DNA of 64,000 nucleotides, taken from NCBI GenBank assembly GCA_963782555.1, contig CAWAKB010000002.1:28308-92307 (forward strand). Reading direction: 5' to 3'. The notes beneath the pieces are model-generated. The model had not been told where the DNA came from. It saw only the letters and a program-made list of their open reading frames with translations, and ran no database searches. This document shows, piece after piece, positions 3,424 to 64,000 of the stretch (within the stretch, counting starts at the first letter, position 1; every line of letters begins with the position of its first letter). A program made the position numbers and the translations under genes. The stretch comes from an uncultured Alphaproteobacteria bacterium. GTDB taxonomy: Bacteria > Pseudomonadota > Alphaproteobacteria > Rhizobiales > Hyphomicrobiaceae.

Positions 3424-4579
3424 CTAAACCGCTTCGAACAGCGCCGCCAGCCCCATGCCGCCCAGCACGCCGAGCGTCGCCACGCCGAGGCTGGCTTTGT
3501 CCTCGCCACGCGCCATGCGTGTGAACAGGCGGGCGACGAGCACCGCGCCGGCGGCGCCATAAGGATGTCCGCGCGCAATCGCGCCGCCGTCGGGGTTGAG
3601 GACGTCCTCGTCGAGCTCGAAGCTCTGCAAAAGCGCGATGGCCTGCGCGGCAGAGGATTTGCTCATCTCGATGACGCCGATGTCGGCCGGCTTGTAGCCA
3701 TTCATCCGCTCTTTGAGCTTCTTCATCGCCTCGATGGGAGCGTCCGCTTCCGCGTCGGGCGCCACGCCGCGCGCGGCCTGCGCGACAAGGCGCAGGGCGC
3801 GCGGCTTTCCAAGTGTGCTCCACAGACGCTCGGACACGACGACCGCCATCGCGCCGCCGTCGTGCATGGCACTCGTGTTGCCGGGTGTCAGCGTGCCGTC
3901 GGGCGAGAAATATGGCGCAAGCTGCGCCAGATCCTTGTAGTCGGGCTCGATGGCGCTTTGGTCGCGCGCCTCCTCGGCATTGGCGCGCAGCGGCACGATC
4001 TCGCCGACGAAACGGCGGCTGGTGCGGGCGGCCTCCGCCTTGAGGTGGGTGCGCAAGGCATAGGCGTCCTGCTGCGCGCGGCTGATCCCTAAGCGCGACG
4101 ACAGCGCCTCCGAGGATTCGATCAGAGGCGTGACCTCCTGCTCCTCGCTGGCGCTGGGCTCGAAGCTCATGAAGTGGGGCAGCTGATAGAGGCTGCGCGG
4201 CTTGGAGATGCGCCACGGCGCGGTCGACACCGAGTTCGGCGCCTCCGGCAAGGATGGCTTCGGCCTCGCCGAGAGCGACCCGGCGGATGGCCGACAGGAT
4301 TGCGTCGAGGCCGGAGCCGCACTGACGGTCGATGGTCGTCGCCGACACCGTCTCGGGCAGTCCGGCGGCGAGCGCGATAAGGCGAGCCGGGTTGCCGCCT
4401 TGAGAGGCGTTGCCGATGATGATCTCGTCGATCTGCCGCGGCTCGATCGCGCTATCTTGCAGCGCAGCAGCAATCAGCGGCGCGCACAATTGCTCGATGC
4501 GTCGCGCCTTGTGGAGGCCGCCAATGCGGCCAACCGCGGTCCGGCGGGCCGCGATGATATACGCTGGGACAGGGGGCAT
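3424..4579 (-). CDS. Thiolase-family protein with non-canonical active site; frameshift near 4235
   Basis: ARRTAVG start, DRQCGSG (Cys), GTLTPGN, GGAIARGHPYGAAG; N- and C-terminal parts in different frames. Confidence 0.85.
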
Positions 4580-4793
4580 CGTCGGGGCTTAAAGGTCCTT
4601 GAAGCAACGGCATAGGAGCGCCGCTTGACTTGGCAGCTCCCTTCTCCATTTGTTCTCTGAGCCGCACCCAACCACATGATGGTGGCGAAAACTGGAACAG
4701 TTGTTTCATGATTAGTGCCGGGCAAAGTACCAGCGCTATGCTCGCCACAGCGTCTGGTATAAGGTACCATCAAAGAAAAATTCTTGGGATGGA

Positions 4794-5294
4794 ATGATGA
4801 CCGAGGCCGCCGCCAGACATTCACTGCCGATATCTCAGAGCGATCGTCGTTTGGCCAAGGCCGTGGAGAGAGCGAGCCAAGCTTTCACCGATAAGAATAT
4901 CCGCTTCACCAAGCTGCGCCAGGATGTGTTCCAGGAGATCGCGGCGACCTACACCTCGATTGGCGCCTACGACATTCTCGCCCGCTTGGCCGAGAAGGGC
5001 ACGCGCCTGGCGCCGATCTCGATCTATCGTGCCATCGATGCTCTGCTCGAGGCGGGCGTCATCCATCGCCTGGAGAGCAAAAACGCCTATTTCGCCTGCC
5101 GCAAGCTCGATCATGCGGCCGGGCGCCGTCCGATCTTCCTCGCCTGTGAAAAGTGCAACGCCGTGCAGGAGGTCGACTCGGAGGGCATCTTCGAGACGAT
5201 CGACCGCGTGTCGCGCGCCACCTCGTTCCAGCCGCGCGTGAAATTCGTGGAGGTCTCAGGCCTGTGCCGCTCTTGCGCTGCTAAGAAGGACTGA
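4794..5294 (+). CDS. zur: Fur-family zinc uptake regulator
   Basis: SIYRAIDALLEAGVIHRLES, CEKC and CRSC motifs; directly upstream of znuC/znuB. Confidence 0.85.
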   Translation: MMTEAAARHSLPISQSDRRLAKAVERASQAFTDKNIRFTKLRQDVFQEIAATYTSIGAYDILARLAEKGTRLAPISIYRAIDALLEAGVIHRLESKNAYFACRKLDHAAGRRPIFLACEKCNAVQEVDSEGIFETIDRVSRATSFQPRVKFVEVSGLCRSCAAKKD

Positions 5295-5301
5295 AGGGCC
5301 T

Positions 5302-6214
<913 letters not shown>

Positions 6215-6222
<8 letters not shown>

Positions 6223-7012
6223 GCCGTTTCTGCTGCGCGCGCTCGTCGCCAGCCTGGGTCTTGCCGTGGTGGCGGCGCCGCTCGGCTGCTTCGTCGTGTG
6301 GCAGCGCATGGCCTATTTCGGCGAGACGACGGCGCAGGCGAGCCTCTTGGGCGTCGCCTTGGCGCTCGCCTTGCAGCTCGACCTGACGCTCGGCGTCCTC
6401 GTCGTGGCGATCGTGGTCGCCTTTCTGCTCATCTGGTTCGGGCGCCAGCAGGTCGTCGCGCTCGATTCGGTGCTGGGGCTCTTGCACCACGCGGCGCTTG
6501 CCGCCGGCGTCATCGCCACCTCCATGATCAAGGGCGCGCCCGTCGACCTCATGGGCTTCCTGTTCGGCGACGTGTTCGCCGTCACCATTTGGGATGTCGC
6601 CTGGATCCTCATCGGCGGAGGCGTGGTGCTCATGCTTGTCACATGGCTGTGGCAACCCCTGTTGCGGCTGGCGGTGCATGAGGATTTGGCCGCCGCCGAA
6701 GGCGTCGCGCGCGAGCGCGTGCGCATGGTCTTTACCGTCCTGCTCGCGGTCACAATCGCGGTCGCCATGAAGATCGTCGGCATCCTGCTGGTCATGGCCT
6801 TCCTCGTCGTCCCCGCCGTCGCCGCGCGCCCCCTGACGGGCTCGCCGGAGCGCATGGTGGTGCTGACCGCGCTCATCGCGGTCGCGAGCGTGATCGTGGG
6901 GCTGTGGCTGTCGTCGAGCTTCGATTCGCCCGGCGGGCCCTCGATTGTGCTTGTCATGTCGCTCTGCGCGGCGCTGTCCTTGACGGCGGCGGGCCTGAAA
7001 CAGAGGCGATAG
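6215..7012 (+). CDS. znuB: Zinc ABC transporter permease
   Basis: GTG start overlapping znuC stop; LGCFVVWQRMAYFGE, LFGDV, KIVGILLV motifs. Confidence 0.9.
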
Positions 7013-13577: not shown

Positions 13578-13907
13578 GGTCGTCGGCCTCCTGATGTGTT
13601 GGGCGACTCGGCTAAGCTCAGCACAAAAGTTGGCTGGAAATTAGGAAGGCTTGCCATCGACTTAGGACACTTGCGAGCTAAGTGGGCGCAAGATCGCGGT
13701 GCCTGAGATGAAATGGCCCGGAGCGGTTGTCCGCAACAGCTGCCCAATTGCGATCATCGCTGAGATCAGCGCGATCAGGCCCCGTCATTCCGCCAATAGG
13801 GGGAGAGCTCGCTTCGATCTGGCTGATCGCGTGCAGGCATCCACCGAGCTGCGCTGGTGGAAGGGCATCGTGCCGCGCAAGGAATTGCGGATGGCAGCGG
13901 CTGCCGT

Positions 13908-14567
13908 CTAGCCTTCGTCTTTCGACAGCTTGTCGATCTTCTGCTGCATGCTGGCGAGCTGGGCCTTGAGATCGCTGATGTCGTTGGTGTCCGACTTGAC
14001 GGATGGCGTGGCCGTCTTCTCCCCCGCCGGCGCACCTTTGCCCGCAGCGTTCGCTTCCCCTTCGCGCTTGGGACCGCCCGGCATGCCCGTGAAGGGGCTC
14101 CACATCGACAGCGCCTGCTCGAACATGGCCATGTTCTTGCGCGCCTGATCCTGGTAGGCCTCGAAAGCGGCCGCCGGATTGGAGAAGGCGTTGGCGAACA
14201 GCGCCCGGAACTTCTCTTGCTCCTTGGCGAGGTTCTCGAGGCTGAACTGGAGATAGCCTGGAACCATGCGCCCGATGCTGTCGTCGTAAAAACGAATGAG
14301 CTGGCGCAGGAAGGGAACCGGCAGCAGCGTCTGGCCGCCTACCCGGTTTTCCTGCTCGACGATGATTTGCGTAAGCACCGAGTGGGTCAGGTCGTCGCCG
14401 GTCTTGGCGTCGTAGACGACGAAGTCCCGGTCTGAGCGCACCATCGTTGCCAGGTCGTCGAGCGTCACGTAGGTGCTGGTCTCGGTGTTATAGAGCCGGC
14501 GGTTGGCATATTTCTTTATGACAACCGCTTCTTTCTTCTCGCTGGGCGCGTCAGTCTTGTTGAGCAT
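13908..14567 (-). CDS. phaR: Polyhydroxyalkanoate synthesis repressor
   Basis: IKKYANRRLYNTETSTYVTL, DLTHSVLTQII; divergent from phaA. Confidence 0.95.
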   Translation of the reverse strand: MLNKTDAPSEKKEAVVIKKYANRRLYNTETSTYVTLDDLATMVRSDRDFVVYDAKTGDDLTHSVLTQIIVEQENRVGGQTLLPVPFLRQLIRFYDDSIGRMVPGYLQFSLENLAKEQEKFRALFANAFSNPAAAFEAYQDQARKNMAMFEQALSMWSPFTGMPGGPKREGEANAAGKGAPAGEKTATPSVKSDTNDISDLKAQLASMQQKIDKLSKDEG

Positions 14568-14590
14568 TTGCGGGGCCGCTACGGCAGTTG

Positions 14591-14600
14591 TTGCGCTGCA
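14591..14600. promoter_or_regulatory. Possible PhaR operator (TGC-N3-GCA)
   Basis: TTGCGCTGCA in the phaR-phaA divergent region; short motif. Confidence 0.3.
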
Positions 14601-14797
14601 TCAGAGTAACACACCGGGCGCCGGGGGGGCCAGCCGTTTATGTTGACCTGACCGGCCAGATGTCGCAATTGCAGGCGGGAAGGCCGTGCTGCTATCGTGC
14701 CCGCAATCTGGGGCGAGCCGGCCCCGGCCGCTGCCAGCCCCGCATTCGGCCTGGTAATCCTAATACGACCTAAAACCCGCCCGAGGAGACGCCACAG

Positions 14798-22973: not shown

Positions 22974-23023
22974 AAAAAACCCGGCCGGATTGGGCCTTCA
23001 AGGCCGCCATCCGCTAACCGGGT
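22974..23023 (-). terminator. Intrinsic terminator-like hairpin in the metX leader
   Basis: Minus strand ACCCGG...CGGAT...ATCCG...CCGGGT followed by a U-run. Confidence 0.6.
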
Positions 23024-23028
23024 GCGTG

Positions 23029-23088
23029 CGGCCTTTTTTAGCGACTTGTTTAACGTGGTTGCAAGCCGGCCGGCCAAATCACCACGAC
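23029..23088 (-). ncRNA. SAM-II (SAM_alpha) riboswitch
   Basis: Minus strand CGTGGTGATTTGGCCGGCCGGCTTGCAACCACGTTAAACAAGTCGCTAAAAAAGGCCG upstream of metX. Confidence 0.9.
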
Positions 23089-23156
23089 GTGTGCAAGGAA
23101 ATAAGGGGTGGGGGCGGGAGCGTCAAGTGCCGGGTGCTCGGCGGGTGAGCCGGCCT

Positions 23157-43480: not shown

Positions 43481-43557
<77 letters not shown>

Positions 43558-51558: not shown

Positions 51559-52695
51559 TCAGTCCGTGAATGGATTGGAGAAGCCGGCGACGAGCTTGAC
51601 GAGATCGGCCTGCCGGCTTGCGCCCGTCTTGTGGTAGAGGCGCTTGAGGTGGGTTTTGACGGTGCTTTCGGCGACGCCGAGGGCTTCCGCCACATCCGGC
51701 GCGCCACCGACCTCGACGACGGCTAGCAGGACTTGCAGCTCGGTCGGGGTCAACTTGTACGTTCGCCCGATGGCGTCGGCAGACGACGGCGGCTGCAATG
51801 CCGCTTTGCGGACGAACACGGCTGCGGCGGCCGTGTAGGCGGTACCGGCGCGGCGACGTTCGCCAGAGTTTAGCGGGAGCACATGCGCGACGTAGCGATC
51901 GCCATCGCGCGCGGTGAGCGGGAATGCGATCCCCTTGATGCCGAGTGCGGCGTCGCCCTTGCCGGCAAGGGTGAAGATATCGCGCAGGGCCTGGTTGACC
52001 CGCGCATCGCCGGTCACGAGGAAGCCTCCGAATACATGGAGGATGTCGTTGCCGGCCAGGATATCGCGCGCCGCCCTGTTGGCATGGACGACCCGGCCTC
52101 TGGCATCCACGAGGAACAGACCCGCGCTCAGTCCGTCGAGCGTCTCTGCCAACATTGCCGCTTGCGCATCCTTGAGATCGACCGACTTTCCGATCAGCGC
52201 CGCCCGGCGCACATGCGGTACGACGAGCGCCAATCGCCGGCGCATCTCCTCGTCGACCATACCGCCGGCCTTATTCGTGACAACTCTGAGAAGCGTATTA
52301 CTGTTTGCCGATTTCTCCAGCACTGCGCTTGCGGCGTCGACCCAACCCTGAGGCCTTGCCCATTCCTGATAGAAGCGCCCCTTAAGATAGTCATCGTAGG
52401 GCACCAGATCGGGGACGCTCGCGACCTGCTCGGGGTCGAACAGCGGCGCCGTCGCGAGGGGATCGAATTTCGAATATGTCTCGGAATAGACCTTGATGTA
52501 GTGCGGGTCGAAGGCGGCATCGTAGAAGACGTTGACGTTTCTGCTCGTGGTGTCTTTCAGGGCAAGGCCGCCGGCCTGACCGCCGACGAGCGAGACGATC
52601 CTCGCGACAACGCCGGTCCATAGTGTGGGATCGAGCGCCGCATCGTAGATGTCGACGACGACCTGGGTTAGCCCTCGATACTCATCCTCGCGCAT
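51559..52695 (-). CDS. LuxR-family HTH regulator with PAS-like central domain
   Basis: IYDAALDPTLW, LFLVDARGRVVHAN, LTPTELQVL...STVKTHLKRLYHKTGASRQADLV. Confidence 0.9.
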   Translation of the reverse strand: MREDEYRGLTQVVVDIYDAALDPTLWTGVVARIVSLVGGQAGGLALKDTTSRNVNVFYDAAFDPHYIKVYSETYSKFDPLATAPLFDPEQVASVPDLVPYDDYLKGRFYQEWARPQGWVDAASAVLEKSANSNTLLRVVTNKAGGMVDEEMRRRLALVVPHVRRAALIGKSVDLKDAQAAMLAETLDGLSAGLFLVDARGRVVHANRAARDILAGNDILHVFGGFLVTGDARVNQALRDIFTLAGKGDAALGIKGIAFPLTARDGDRYVAHVLPLNSGERRRAGTAYTAAAAVFVRKAALQPPSSADAIGRTYKLTPTELQVLLAVVEVGGAPDVAEALGVAESTVKTHLKRLYHKTGASRQADLVKLVAGFSNPFTD

Positions 52696-52942: not shown

Positions 52943-53817
52943 TCAGAGGGAGAGTCCTGGGTTAGTGTTTTGCCCATTGCCGGTCGTCGCGGCAAGGGCC
53001 AGGTGGTGGCTGCAGAACTCCTCCGGTGTCCGGTTGGCGAGCGCCGAATTGGGCCGTACACGATTGTAATCGTCGCGCCACGCGGCGAGCACCGCGCGGG
53101 CCTCGGCGAGCGACGAGAAGACCGACTCGTTCAGGCACTCATCCCGGAGCCGGCCGTTGAAACTCTCGACAAACGCGTTCTGTTGCGGCTTGCCCGGCTG
53201 GATGTAGTGCCAGTCGACGCCCGTTCCCTTGCTCCAGGCCAGGATTGCCATGCTGGTGAGTTCGGTGCCGTTGTCGGAAACGCACGTCATCGGCTTGCCT
53301 CGGACCGCAATGATGGCATGGAGCTCTCGCGCAACGCGCGAGCGCCCGAGAGCGAGGTATCTGCGACGAGCGCCAGGCATTCGCGCGTGCAGTCGTCGAC
53401 AACCGCAAGAGCGCGGAACCGGCGGCTGTCCGTGAATGTGTCTGAGACGAAATCCAACGACCAGCGCTCGTTCGGCCGCGACGGAAGAGCCAAGGGGGCA
53501 CGCAGCCCGAGAGCCCGCTTGCGGCCACCACGCTTCCTCACCTGCAAACCTTCCTCGCGGTAGAGCCGCCGGAACCGCTTCTGGTTCATTGCCAAGCCTT
53601 CTCTCTCCAGCAGGAAATGCAATCGCCGGTAGCCAAACCGGCGACGCACCTGCGCCAGCTCCCGAATGCGAAGCCGAACGGCAAAATCGTCCGGGCGCAG
53701 GCTCCGGTAGCGCACCGTCGACCGATCAAGACCTAAGGCTTGGCACGCCCGCCGCTCGCTCACCTCGTGTGTCGTGCACACGTGAACCACGACCTGCCGT
53801 TTAGCGGCGGGCGTCAC
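52943..53817 (-). CDS. IS3 transposase OrfB (DDE); extra frameshift near 53340
   Basis: [52 protein letters not shown]. Confidence 0.9.
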
Positions 53818-54080
53818 CACTTTCGGCTGTTGATGTCCTTCAGGATCGCGTTGTCGAGCATCGTCTCGGCGAGCAGCTTCTTAAGCTTCGCGTTCTCGTC
53901 CTCGAGCGACTTCAGCCGCTTTGCGTCCGACACGTCCAGCCCGCCGAACTTCGACTTCCACTTGTAGAACGTCGCACCGCTGACCCCGTGCTTGCGGCAA
54001 ACATCCGCTGTCGGACGCCCTGCCTCCTGTTCCCGCAAGATCGCTATGATCTGCTCTTCCGAAAATCTGCTCTTACGCAT
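53814..54080 (-). CDS. IS3 transposase OrfA
   Basis: MRKSRFSEEQII...CRKHGVSGATFYKWKSKFGG...LEDENAKLKKLLA; ends CGA AAG TGG TGA. Confidence 0.93.
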   Translation of the reverse strand: MRKSRFSEEQIIAILREQEAGRPTADVCRKHGVSGATFYKWKSKFGGLDVSDAKRLKSLEDENAKLKKLLAETMLDNAILKDINSRKW

Positions 54081-62592: not shown

Positions 62593-62937
62593 TTATCCCG
62601 TGCTGTTCGGTGGGCCGTAGCAGAGGACCTGCACCTTCTCCAAAGTAACCAGTCCGCCGGTCATCATTGCATCGAGGATAGGAAGGAACGCATCAATCTT
62701 CGCTTCGCTGTCGACGATCTCTATGACCACCGGCAGATTTTCGGCGAGCCGCAGAATCTTGGTCGTATGCAGAAGGCACGAGCGGCCGAACCCCATTGGA
62801 CCGCGGAGGACTGTGGCGCCGGCGAGATGCGCCTCTCGTGCACGAAAAATGATCGCCTCATAGAGGGGCCGGCCATTCACCCTATCGTTTTCGCCGACGA
62901 AAATTCGCAGCAGCTTTGCGTCATTGGGGACGGTCAT
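62593..62937 (-). CDS. DUF190 family (PII-like) protein
   Basis: LLRIFVGEND, LAGATVLRGPMGFG, LAENLPVVIEIVD, GGLVTLEKV. Confidence 0.93.
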   Translation of the reverse strand: MTVPNDAKLLRIFVGENDRVNGRPLYEAIIFRAREAHLAGATVLRGPMGFGRSCLLHTTKILRLAENLPVVIEIVDSEAKIDAFLPILDAMMTGGLVTLEKVQVLCYGPPNSTG

Positions 62938-63061
62938 GGCGTGACTTCTCCCAAGGTAGGCTCAACTGGCGTCACGCATTTGGCCCGCTCTCAAGATGGC
63001 GCGAACACAAACCCATTATACGGCGGGCTTGTGAGCAATCTCCCACCGCTAGCGTCCTGCG

Positions 63062-63109
63062 GTAGGAGTCATCAGCCAAGTTGCGGCGGTTTCGGGGGAC
63101 TCCATCCCC
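63062..63109 (-). ncRNA. Fluoride (crcB-motif) riboswitch upstream of DUF190
   Basis: Minus strand GGGGATGGAGTCCCCCGAAACCGCCGCAACTTGGCTGATGACTCCTAC, canonical pattern. Confidence 0.92.
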
Positions 63110-63227: not shown

Positions 63228-64000
63228 TCAAGTAGTGGTGTGTGATCCCCGCTTGGTCATGTCATGGGCCACGCCGGCCGCCTGCGCCGTCGGAAGGCGC
63301 CGTGCCGCCCACCGTTCGAGTGCAAAATAGAGGGTTGGCATGATGAACAGGGTGAGCAGCGTAGCCGGAAGAAGACCGCCGGCCACAACCGTCGCGAGGC
63401 TGCGCTGCACGTCGCTGCCGACGCCCGTCGCCAGCGCGGCTGGCAACATGCCGACCGTTGCCACGGAAGCCGTCATAAGCACCGGTCGCAAGCGTTCGCC
63501 AGCTCCTACCAAGACGGCCTCGAACAGCGGGGTGCCTTGCTCGCGGACCCGATTGAGGTTTGCCACCATGATGACCCCGTTCATGACGGCGACACCGAAC
63601 AGCGCGATGAAGCCGACCCCCGACGCGACATTTAGGGTCGTCCCGGTGAGATGGAGGGCGATCAATCCTCCGAGCGTCGCCAAGGGCACCAAGCTGAGGA
63701 TCAGCAAGACCTGGCGCAAGACCCCGAACTCGGCATAGAGCAGTATTATCATGAGCCCCAAGACCAAGCCGAGAATCAGCTTGAAACGCGCCTCTGCCCG
63801 CCGCTGGCTCTCGAACTGTCCGCCCCATTTAAGGTGATATTTTTTCCGATCGAATGAAACCTTTGCTGCGATGGCTTTCGTGACCTGTGACACGAGCGCA
63901 GCGGGATCGCGATCATGATAGTCGAGCTTCACCAGTAGGTAGCGGTGATTCATTTCGCGATTGATCATGCTTTCGCCGGTCTGCACCTTGACGTCCGCGA
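63228..64000 (-). CDS. CusA/CzcA-family RND efflux permease, C-terminal part (truncated by the window)
   Basis: WGGQFESQRRA, VASGVGFIALFGVAVMNG, RLRPVLMTA, GVGSDVQRSLATVVAGGL. Confidence 0.92.
   Translation of the reverse strand, partial: ADVKVQTGESMINREMNHRYLLVKLDYHDRDPAALVSQVTKAIAAKVSFDRKKYHLKWGGQFESQRRAEARFKLILGLVLGLMIILLYAEFGVLRQVLLILSLVPLATLGGLIALHLTGTTLNVASGVGFIALFGVAVMNGVIMVANLNRVREQGTPLFEAVLVGAGERLRPVLMTASVATVGMLPAALATGVGSDVQRSLATVVAGGLLPATLLTLFIMPTLYFALERWAARRLPTAQAAGVAHDMTKRGSHTTT

Follow-up and report, generated by a model that had tools for sequence, protein, structure and literature searches.

A 64,000-nucleotide stretch of DNA from an uncultured alphaproteobacterium of the Hyphomicrobiaceae (contig CAWAKB010000002.1 of assembly GCA_963782555.1), hereafter the window, carries two fluoride riboswitches in series, and the first of these, RS1, precedes a single gene encoding a protein of the DUF190 family. 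We consider it reasonably likely, taking the explanation as a whole, that RS1 and this gene, here called DUF190w, form a transcription unit of their own that is inducible by fluoride, the genome having three units of this kind. The second riboswitch, RS2, heads an operon encoding an Ehr-type complex, a membrane assembly that resembles hydrogenases. The most likely role for DUF190w, judged from its sequence and surroundings, would be that of an accessory or regulatory subunit of fluoride-induced ion-handling machinery. No experimentally defined function for DUF190 or for nickel-free Ehr complexes was found in the literature searched, and the main value of the locus is a clean lead on DUF190 function and on a link between Ehr and fluoride. 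The principal elements are as follows.

63118-63056, minus strand: RS1, fluoride aptamer (crcB motif); Rfam RF01734, 54.8 bits, E 2e-12, model positions 1-64 of 64
62937-62593, minus strand: DUF190w (DUF190/UPF0166), 114 amino acids; PF02641 at 133.1 bits against a cut-off of 23.4, E 4.5e-39, profile positions 1-97 of 97
62546-62485, minus strand: RS2, fluoride aptamer; RF01734, 48.4 bits, full-length, heading a 33-codon leader open reading frame (ORF) and the Ehr-type operon
62457-62356, minus strand: the 33-codon RS2 leader ORF, whose TGA overlaps the GTG of a NuoH-like gene (62359-61415)

Aptamers were called by Rfam cmscan against RF01734 (Fluoride), with a gathering score of 34 bits. By its aptamer sequence, RS1 is a genuine fluoride riboswitch and an ordinary member of this known class. 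The cmscan alignment contains the paired regions P1 (GGGG/CCCC) and P2 and the pseudoknot strands GGAGU/ACUCC, keeps every conserved position, including the GAUGG..GU and CUGAUGA.UCC segments, and has no non-canonical pairs. These features are retained in five orthologous loci, which together with the window make up what we call the window clade: three species-level genomes (L010, L011 and L012) and two metagenome contigs (L038 and L039), whose aptamers score 47-56 bits. The 3' end of RS1 lies 118 nt ahead of the DUF190w ATG on the same strand, with a competing hairpin (hairpin 1, below) that takes up ACUCC. A preliminary description of this DNA, made from the letters alone, had reported a canonical second aptamer about 570 bp from the first and a DUF190 gene as the only gene before the next riboswitch. 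Both statements hold: the starts of RS1 and RS2 are 572 nt apart, and the 114-amino-acid DUF190 ORF is the sole credible gene between them. From sequence, we infer that the RS1 unit is induced by fluoride in vivo. RS2 carries an anti-Shine-Dalgarno/Shine-Dalgarno hairpin ahead of the ATG of the leader ORF; according to Pfam, the genes of the operon behind it encode, in order, a NuoH-like protein, a HyfE/B-like fusion, a NuoC/D-like large subunit, a ferredoxin-NuoB fusion and a second antiporter-like subunit.

Two promoter-like modules and a weak stem-loop divide the region into two units in series.

63150-63122, minus strand: promoter-like module P1; -35 TTGACC (63150-63145), 17-nt spacer, -10 TAGCGT (63127-63122)
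62603-62588, minus strand: weak stem-loop across the DUF190w stop codon, followed by GGUUUGUUGA; a possible leaky terminator
62581-62553, minus strand: promoter-like module P2, for RS2; -35 TTGACA (62581-62576), 17-nt spacer, -10 TAGCTA (62558-62553)

Module P1 ends about 4 nt ahead of the Rfam start of the RS1 aptamer. In the leader alignment the block GTTGACCCTG.GCCA...TAAA.TAGC and the box TTGACC-N17-TAGC.T at P1 are invariant across the four genomes (the window and L010-L012), and the sequence farther upstream diverges. Module P2 sits between the DUF190w stop codon and RS2, and both of its hexamers are invariant in the same four genomes, the spacer being otherwise variable. A GTTGAC box stands at an equal distance before the fluoride aptamers of two other loci (L014 and L037) and of the crcB leader of the same genome. 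A generic sigma-70 scan called neither P1 nor P2; the boxes were recognised solely through their conservation, from which we infer that they act as promoters. The stem-loop at the stop codon was the sole terminator-like site from the terminator scan, at a number equal to the level in shuffled sequence. Because this stem is weak, and is not conserved in L011 or L012, some read-through from DUF190w into RS2 is possible.

RS1 and RS2 are separated by a 345-nt coding sequence under purifying selection and by a conserved TTGACA-N17-TAGCTA box. A cooperative tandem riboswitch was considered and rejected, because the aptamers do not share a single leader before one platform or gene; a complete gene and a promoter-like box intervene. 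The pair resembles the glycine tandem riboswitch (PMC13018625) in being of one class, on one strand and only those 572 nt apart, but differs from it in consisting of single-aptamer units in series. RS1 is probably transcriptional and RS2 translational, so far as their leader sequences can indicate, so that the two would be serial switches acting at different levels, a compact pair suited to dose-response comparison.

The genome examined (7 contigs, 98% complete) contains a single CrcB match, on contig 4, where it immediately follows a third fluoride aptamer, RS3 (42.6 bits). A second DUF190 gene follows this crcB with a 10-nt overlap, giving a canonical riboswitch-crcB-DUF190 operon; one CLC-family gene lies about 9 kb from it, and the two DUF190 paralogs of the genome are 69% identical. 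The preliminary description had presented DUF190w as a gene with no crcB. This is correct for the locus: a tblastn search (16 CrcB queries, E up to 10) turned up no crcB remnant, either between window positions 52000 and 64000 or in L005, a stretch that overlaps the end of the window and extends it upstream by about 11.7 kb, there being nothing below E 0.02 and one weak match that is a translated riboswitch. It is not correct for the genome, where crcB is present with a riboswitch of its own. Likewise, in place of the two-switch regulon with non-canonical effectors proposed in that description, the fluoride regulon of this organism comprises three switches, RS3-crcB-DUF190, RS1-DUF190 and RS2-Ehr, the first of them canonical. 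Three sister genomes keep the same trio: in each, a single crcB has a second DUF190 gene behind it, and a riboswitch is visible in every case where the contig permits.

DUF190w belongs to the same family as the DUF190 genes of crcB-DUF190 operons and occurs in the same fluoride context, in a genome that also has the standard pair. It differs from them in lacking crcB within its unit or within about 12 kb, in having its own riboswitch and promoter-like box, and in being fixed upstream of an Ehr operon. If a crcB-DUF190 operon is defined by a DUF190 gene directly behind crcB, the contig 4 paralog belongs to one and DUF190w does not. The locus represents a DUF190 lineage that is separable from crcB and yet retains fluoride control, and RS1-DUF190 adds a unit to the known fluoride regulon rather than constituting a new kind of system.

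The fluoride riboswitch (crcB motif RNA) was first reported before crcB, CLC-type, mutS and 'formate hydrogen lyase' genes (Weinberg 2010, PMC2864571; review PMC11139923). RS1 is like the known examples in having a full-length aptamer in a 5' leader, an alternative helix over the 3' pseudoknot strand and ON-switch logic, and its genome is like others in holding several copies and a regulon with 'formate hydrogen lyase'-like genes. It is unlike them in that the first and sole gene of the unit encodes DUF190, and in that the stem overlapping the aptamer has no U-tract behind it and seems to work by way of another hairpin farther downstream. Knowledge of the riboswitch class itself is unchanged by the locus.

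The DUF190w protein matches the solved members of its family by phmmer (PDB 2DCL, PH1503, E 9e-24; 1O51, TM0021, E 2e-20). Its AlphaFold2 monomer model (pLDDT 81) has the element order beta-alpha-beta-beta-alpha-beta and TM-scores of 0.84-0.90, normalised by target length, to 2DCL and 1O51, with residues 54-65 forming a low-confidence, disordered loop at the position of the PII T-loop. Foldseek returned 2DCL and 1O51 first, followed by CutA, SbtB (including the SbtA-SbtB complex 7EGK), GlnK and CPII. The likeness to GlnK and SbtB lies at the level of the fold (E about 1e-3 to 2e-3, 16-22% identity), and the canonical P-II family profile is not matched, Pfam giving DUF190 alone; it is at this level that the PII-like character assigned to DUF190 in the preliminary description is confirmed. 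The product is probably trimeric. In the five orthologous loci the DUF190 proteins are 89-92% identical to DUF190w. Against the orthologs of L010-L012, the ratio of nonsynonymous to synonymous divergence (dN/dS) is 0.07-0.12 with dS of 0.39-0.75; the low ratio indicates that the gene is functional and under purifying selection. Proteins of the window clade have two clade-specific cysteines, at residue 54 in the flexible loop (GFG(R/H)SCLLH) and at residue 106 near the C-terminus (VLCYG), where other DUF190 proteins have S/T and Q; a redox role for them, as in the C-terminal loop of SbtB, is pure speculation.

The gene for CPII lies beside that of a DAB-type transporter with a PF00361 subunit. 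DUF190w is like CPII and the GlnK-AmtB and SbtB-SbtA pairs in combining a PII-like fold and a long flexible loop with a place beside membrane ion-transport genes; unlike them, it has only the distant identity given above, has no P-II Pfam match and is not co-transcribed with its presumed partner. No functional study of DUF190 in fluoride biology was found in the literature searched. A GlnK-like modulation of channels has been suggested for DUF190 (PMC3543383), and one DUF190 gene, flJ, belongs to the fluorometabolite cluster of Streptomyces cattleya (bioRxiv 10.1101/2022.03.08.483453).

The partners that DUF190w might serve can be judged from the genomic contexts of its relatives. Fifteen genome loci retrieved by similarity to DUF190w include 11 with crcB directly upstream and 3 that belong to the window clade. 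In a family-level sample, 10 of 14 strong DUF190 genes lie behind crcB, and 2, which lack crcB, are preceded by a riboswitch and by genes for an Na+/H+ exchanger and a USP. Such crcB-less riboswitch-Na+/H+ exchanger-USP-DUF190 operons are found in L025 (G039:C66, 1983-4221) and L026 (G084:C26, 2600-4878). The exchanger gene directly precedes DUF190, with no USP match, in L048 and L065, of which L065 yielded no riboswitch. In L013 a module of the Na+/H+ exchanger-USP-DUF190 type is followed by crcB and two DUF190 genes. In S. cattleya, flJ adjoins the Na+/H+ antiporter gene flH. Tandem crcB-DUF190a-DUF190b operons are common in Alphaproteobacteria and were found in nine other loci (L013, 7598-8734; L014, 7609-8714; L040, L041, L043-L046; and L042, which ends at a contig edge).

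An earlier tree of 31 rows left the alphaproteobacterial paralogs unresolved. In a tree of 38 rows the 'a' and 'b' copies of the tandem operons form separate groups, and the window clade (100/99) falls within a starred group (95/87), along with the 'a' copies and with the DUF190 genes that accompany Ehr in L034, L036 and L037. The other paralog of the window genome and L010-L012, the one behind crcB, lies across a 95/90 split, with copies linked to the Na+/H+ exchanger and USP genes. This split indicates that DUF190w and the crcB-linked paralog are old, distinct lineages.

We examined 13 Ehr loci: those of the window clade (six), a further six found by way of the large subunit, and G358. A fluoride switch precedes the NuoH-like gene in all 13, and DUF190 lies within 8 kb in nine. 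An Ehr-linked DUF190 gene without nearby crcB occurs in three independent lineages, those of the window clade, L036 and L029. DUF190 stands upstream of Ehr in L036 and L032 and downstream in L034, L036 and L032, so that in L036 two DUF190 genes flank Ehr, with no crcB within 8 kb. At the gathering threshold, neither of these upstream DUF190 genes (L036, L032) has a riboswitch to itself; a private switch is thus not universal for Ehr-linked DUF190. L037 (2848-4791) packs three fluoride aptamers into 1.5 kb, serving a Metallophos phosphoesterase gene, a lone DUF190 gene with a textbook terminator, and a divergent Ehr operon. L029 encodes a 280-amino-acid fused double-DUF190 protein (13798-14640, minus strand) beside an enolase gene and a HIT gene, each half being sister to one gene of the tandem DUF190 pair of L032 (3181-4058, plus strand); the correspondence hints that DUF190 paralogs form hetero-oligomers. 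In G358, which is of another family (L076, G358:C4, 13898-14798), an unrelated 168-amino-acid ORF with no Pfam match lies between two serial aptamers upstream of Ehr, and in L035 (4003-4635) a different, 136-amino-acid ORF lies behind a divergent aptamer. The riboswitch-Ehr operon of L031 (1-13733) is placed inside a urease cluster, between ureA and ureD.

On these contexts, the Ehr complex would be the likeliest partner of DUF190w, which would then be an Ehr-specialised paralog; we put this forward tentatively, because DUF190w keeps a fixed place beside Ehr and each locus in the four genomes has retained exactly one paralog. A role for DUF190w as a regulator of Ehr, which the preliminary description proposed to be nucleotide-sensing, is at most plausible. 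The more specific proposal that DUF190w is a dedicated PII-like gate or regulator of a fluoride-induced Ehr complex, and the second paralog likewise of CrcB, draws on analogy with GlnK for AmtB and SbtB for SbtA and is rather unlikely as it stands. Under this proposal, the transcriptional riboswitch of DUF190w would set its dose independently of the translationally switched Ehr complex. If true, it would give DUF190 its first function and provide a regulatory handle on the orphan Ehr family. Next after an Ehr partner we rank a mixed oligomer of DUF190w with the crcB-linked paralog, serving CrcB; this is a possibility that we hold with some doubt, raised by the kinship of DUF190w with 'a' copies behind crcB and by the tandem and fused pairs.

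Several observations weigh against an Ehr-specific role, which is one of several readings of the locus. The nearest relatives of DUF190w, of the 'a' type, lie behind crcB in operons that lack Ehr, and DUF190 genes are also associated with Na+/H+ exchanger-USP genes and with enolase genes. Four of the 13 Ehr loci (L031, L033, L035 and G358) have no DUF190 nearby. In L070 an intact, divergent Ehr operon, with a NuoH-like protein of 44% identity, has directly ahead of its fluoride aptamer the decayed remnant of a DUF190w-like gene (1852-2148), which keeps 79% identity across residues 62-99 and then loses the reading frame. Moreover, five of the examples linked to Ehr came to light through an Ehr protein, a biased sample in which the adjacency is partly due to the retrieval. 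The varied neighbours, the Ehr loci without DUF190 and the decay in L070 suggest that DUF190 is a general and dispensable fluoride-response module. DUF190 may be a PII-like module of the fluoride response at large rather than an appendage of CrcB, and individual paralogs may have become adapted to different membrane machines.

The strongest rival explanation, which we judge unlikely though worth weighing, dissociates DUF190w from Ehr altogether and makes it half of a DUF190a/DUF190b pair working with CrcB. An 'a' copy would have left an ancestral riboswitch-crcB-DUF190a-DUF190b operon with a copy of the crcB-type riboswitch, and would still be co-induced with crcB and the partner paralog; its adjacency to Ehr would be mere clustering of fluoride-regulon genes on a mobile island. 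The nine tandem operons, the position of DUF190w among the 'a' copies and the matching fused and tandem proteins of L029 and L032 fit this history. The RS1 switching platform, moreover, with its B, C and D boxes (see below), is homologous to the crcB leader of L014, and the block is flanked by an IS3 transposase in a genomic context that varies between genomes. However, the crcB-linked paralog of the clade groups with the exchanger-USP-linked copies and not with the 'b' copies; all six genes of the window type are fixed immediately upstream of RS2-Ehr; and the two DUF190 genes of L036 flank Ehr without crcB.

The leader between RS1 and DUF190w contains three hairpins.

63068-63040, minus strand: hairpin 1 (A:B), CUCCUACCGC (63068-63059) paired with GCGGUGGGAG (63049-63040); excludes the aptamer pseudoknot
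63033-63006, to 63000 with the tail, minus strand: hairpin 2 (C:D), CACAAGCCC...GGGUUUGUG then UUCGCG; terminator-like
62977-62939, minus strand: hairpin 3 (GCGUGAC/GUCACGC), enclosing the Shine-Dalgarno sequence GGGAGAAG (62952-62945), 8 nt ahead of the start codon at 62937

The preliminary description had noted a competing stem at 63040-63068 without a U-tract, and this stem is hairpin 1. It is present in the minimum-free-energy fold at -19.2 kcal/mol (range -17 to -20 kcal/mol), contains the ACUCC needed by the pseudoknot, and is followed by the tail AUUGCUCAC, with 3 U in 9 (2-3 U in 9 across the window clade). Both arms are invariant in the four genomes apart from one G-C to G-U change in L012, and the loop is free to vary. 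Hairpin 2 lies about 10 nt downstream. Its C box, CCCGCCGU (63027-63020), can alternatively form 8 bp with arm B of hairpin 1, a helix of -14.4 kcal/mol in the window and of -11.8 to -17.1 kcal/mol across six leaders. In L012 (GGCGGGUUUUGUGUU), in the crcB leader of L014 and in the RS3 crcB leader of the window's own genome, the hairpin homologous to hairpin 2 forms a canonical terminator, and in L010 compensatory A-U to G-C changes preserve the stem.

These features point to a three-helix attenuator, whose termination logic is predicted from the leader sequences. Transcription would start at the unit's own promoter, TTGACC-N17-TAGCGT. Without fluoride, A would pair with B in hairpin 1, leaving C free to form the terminator-like C:D hairpin, and transcription would be attenuated. 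With fluoride, the pseudoknot, stabilised by Mg and F, would hold A, so that B and C could form the 8-bp antiterminator and polymerase would read into DUF190w. Hairpin 1 is on this evidence probably an anti-antiterminator and not the terminator itself, which explains why it lacks a U-tract. The suspicion of an unusual platform that the missing U-tract had raised is thus not upheld: the stem can be read as an anti-antiterminator lying ahead of a terminator-like hairpin, and the platform is slightly unusual but explicable.

Complementarity between B and C is kept in three sequence versions, GCGGUGGG/CCCGCCGU, GCGGGUG/CACCUGC and GACGGGAG/CUCCCGUC, which come from RS1, the crcB leader of the same genome and the Metallophos leader of L037. 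Other observations tell against the attenuator. The U-tract of hairpin 2 is weak in the window and in L011 and absent in L010, so that with poor U-tracts in three of four orthologs attenuation may be leaky or may proceed by another mechanism. B and C are invariant among orthologs, and the window clade consequently offers no covariation between them. In equilibrium folding with the pseudoknot strand alone blocked, hairpin 2 persists, and the B:C helix emerges solely when the nascent B..C segment is folded by itself; since equilibrium folds retain hairpin 2, the model depends on co-transcriptional order.

An improbable but coherent alternative is that hairpin 1 is itself a terminator with a decayed U-tract and hairpin 2 plays no part, RS1 being weak, leaky or Rho-dependent and DUF190w expressed largely constitutively or by read-through. 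The homologous stem is indeed followed directly by U6-U8, as a textbook terminator, in the leaders of the lone DUF190 gene of L037 and of the Na+/H+ exchanger gene of L013, and both the U-poor tail of hairpin 1 in the window clade and the missing U-tract of hairpin 2 in L010 are in keeping with decay. Yet the arms of hairpin 1, the C box and hairpin 2 are all conserved or compensated despite a synonymous divergence of 0.39-0.75, B:C complementarity is maintained in three versions that are unrelated in sequence, and the crcB leader of the same genome shares the two-hairpin arrangement, its second terminator being canonical. These points favor the three-helix attenuator over a decayed terminator. 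In that crcB leader (L006, 6480-6695; G000:C4) the second terminator is GGCCACC-UGCGA-GGUGGCC followed by UUUUU, and the aptamer has a longer P2 insertion.

Hairpin 3 is present in the folds and conserved in the four genomes. Constrained partition-function folding of the four orthologous leaders revealed no consistent change in Shine-Dalgarno accessibility between the free and the aptamer-locked states, and translational control of DUF190w through Shine-Dalgarno sequestration is accordingly unsupported, the shift being inconsistent across the four leaders.

The order RS1-DUF190-RS2-Ehr is common to the window, L010-L012, L038 and L039, and in every one of these six loci DUF190w is physically linked to the Ehr operon, so that the lineage travels as a single block with that operon. 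What lies upstream of RS1 differs from genome to genome: a split RND gene in the window, and in L010-L012 a tRNA gene with a metallo-beta-lactamase-fold gene, a phosphoesterase gene and a methyltransferase gene. An IS3-family transposase gene (52943-53820, minus strand; two overlapping ORFs, HTH_21/rve and rve_3) lies just over 1 kb past the last Ehr gene of the window. Three further genomes of the same genus have crcB and lack both DUF190 and the fluoride riboswitch. Across the order, the Ehr large subunit was present in just 2 of 401 sampled genomes, a number that leaves an order-wide phylogenetic profile of Ehr against DUF190 with no statistical power. With its varied flanks, the IS3 element and a sporadic distribution, the RS1-DUF190-RS2-Ehr block behaves as an accessory island that is, to judge by these sequences, probably mobile.

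The RND gene, of the AcrB family, ends 110 nt upstream of RS1 on the same strand. It is split into ORFs of 183 amino acids (profile positions 2-142) and 895 amino acids (151-1020), spanning window positions 63228-64000 and L005 positions 3536-6668 (G000:C2:91535-94667). The split could reflect a frameshifted pseudogene or an assembly error; a gene for an HlyD-type fusion protein precedes the RND gene. That DUF190w regulates this efflux pump or shares its transcript, a link raised in the preliminary description, is scarcely credible. In its favor are just the shared strand and the short distance in the window; against it, L010, L011 and L012 carry no RND gene upstream of RS1, the conserved promoter-like box separates the RND gene from RS1, and the gene itself is split.

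Elsewhere in the window lie a SAM-alpha (SAM-II type) riboswitch of 73 bits (23016-23095, minus strand) and a tRNA gene (43481-43554, plus strand).

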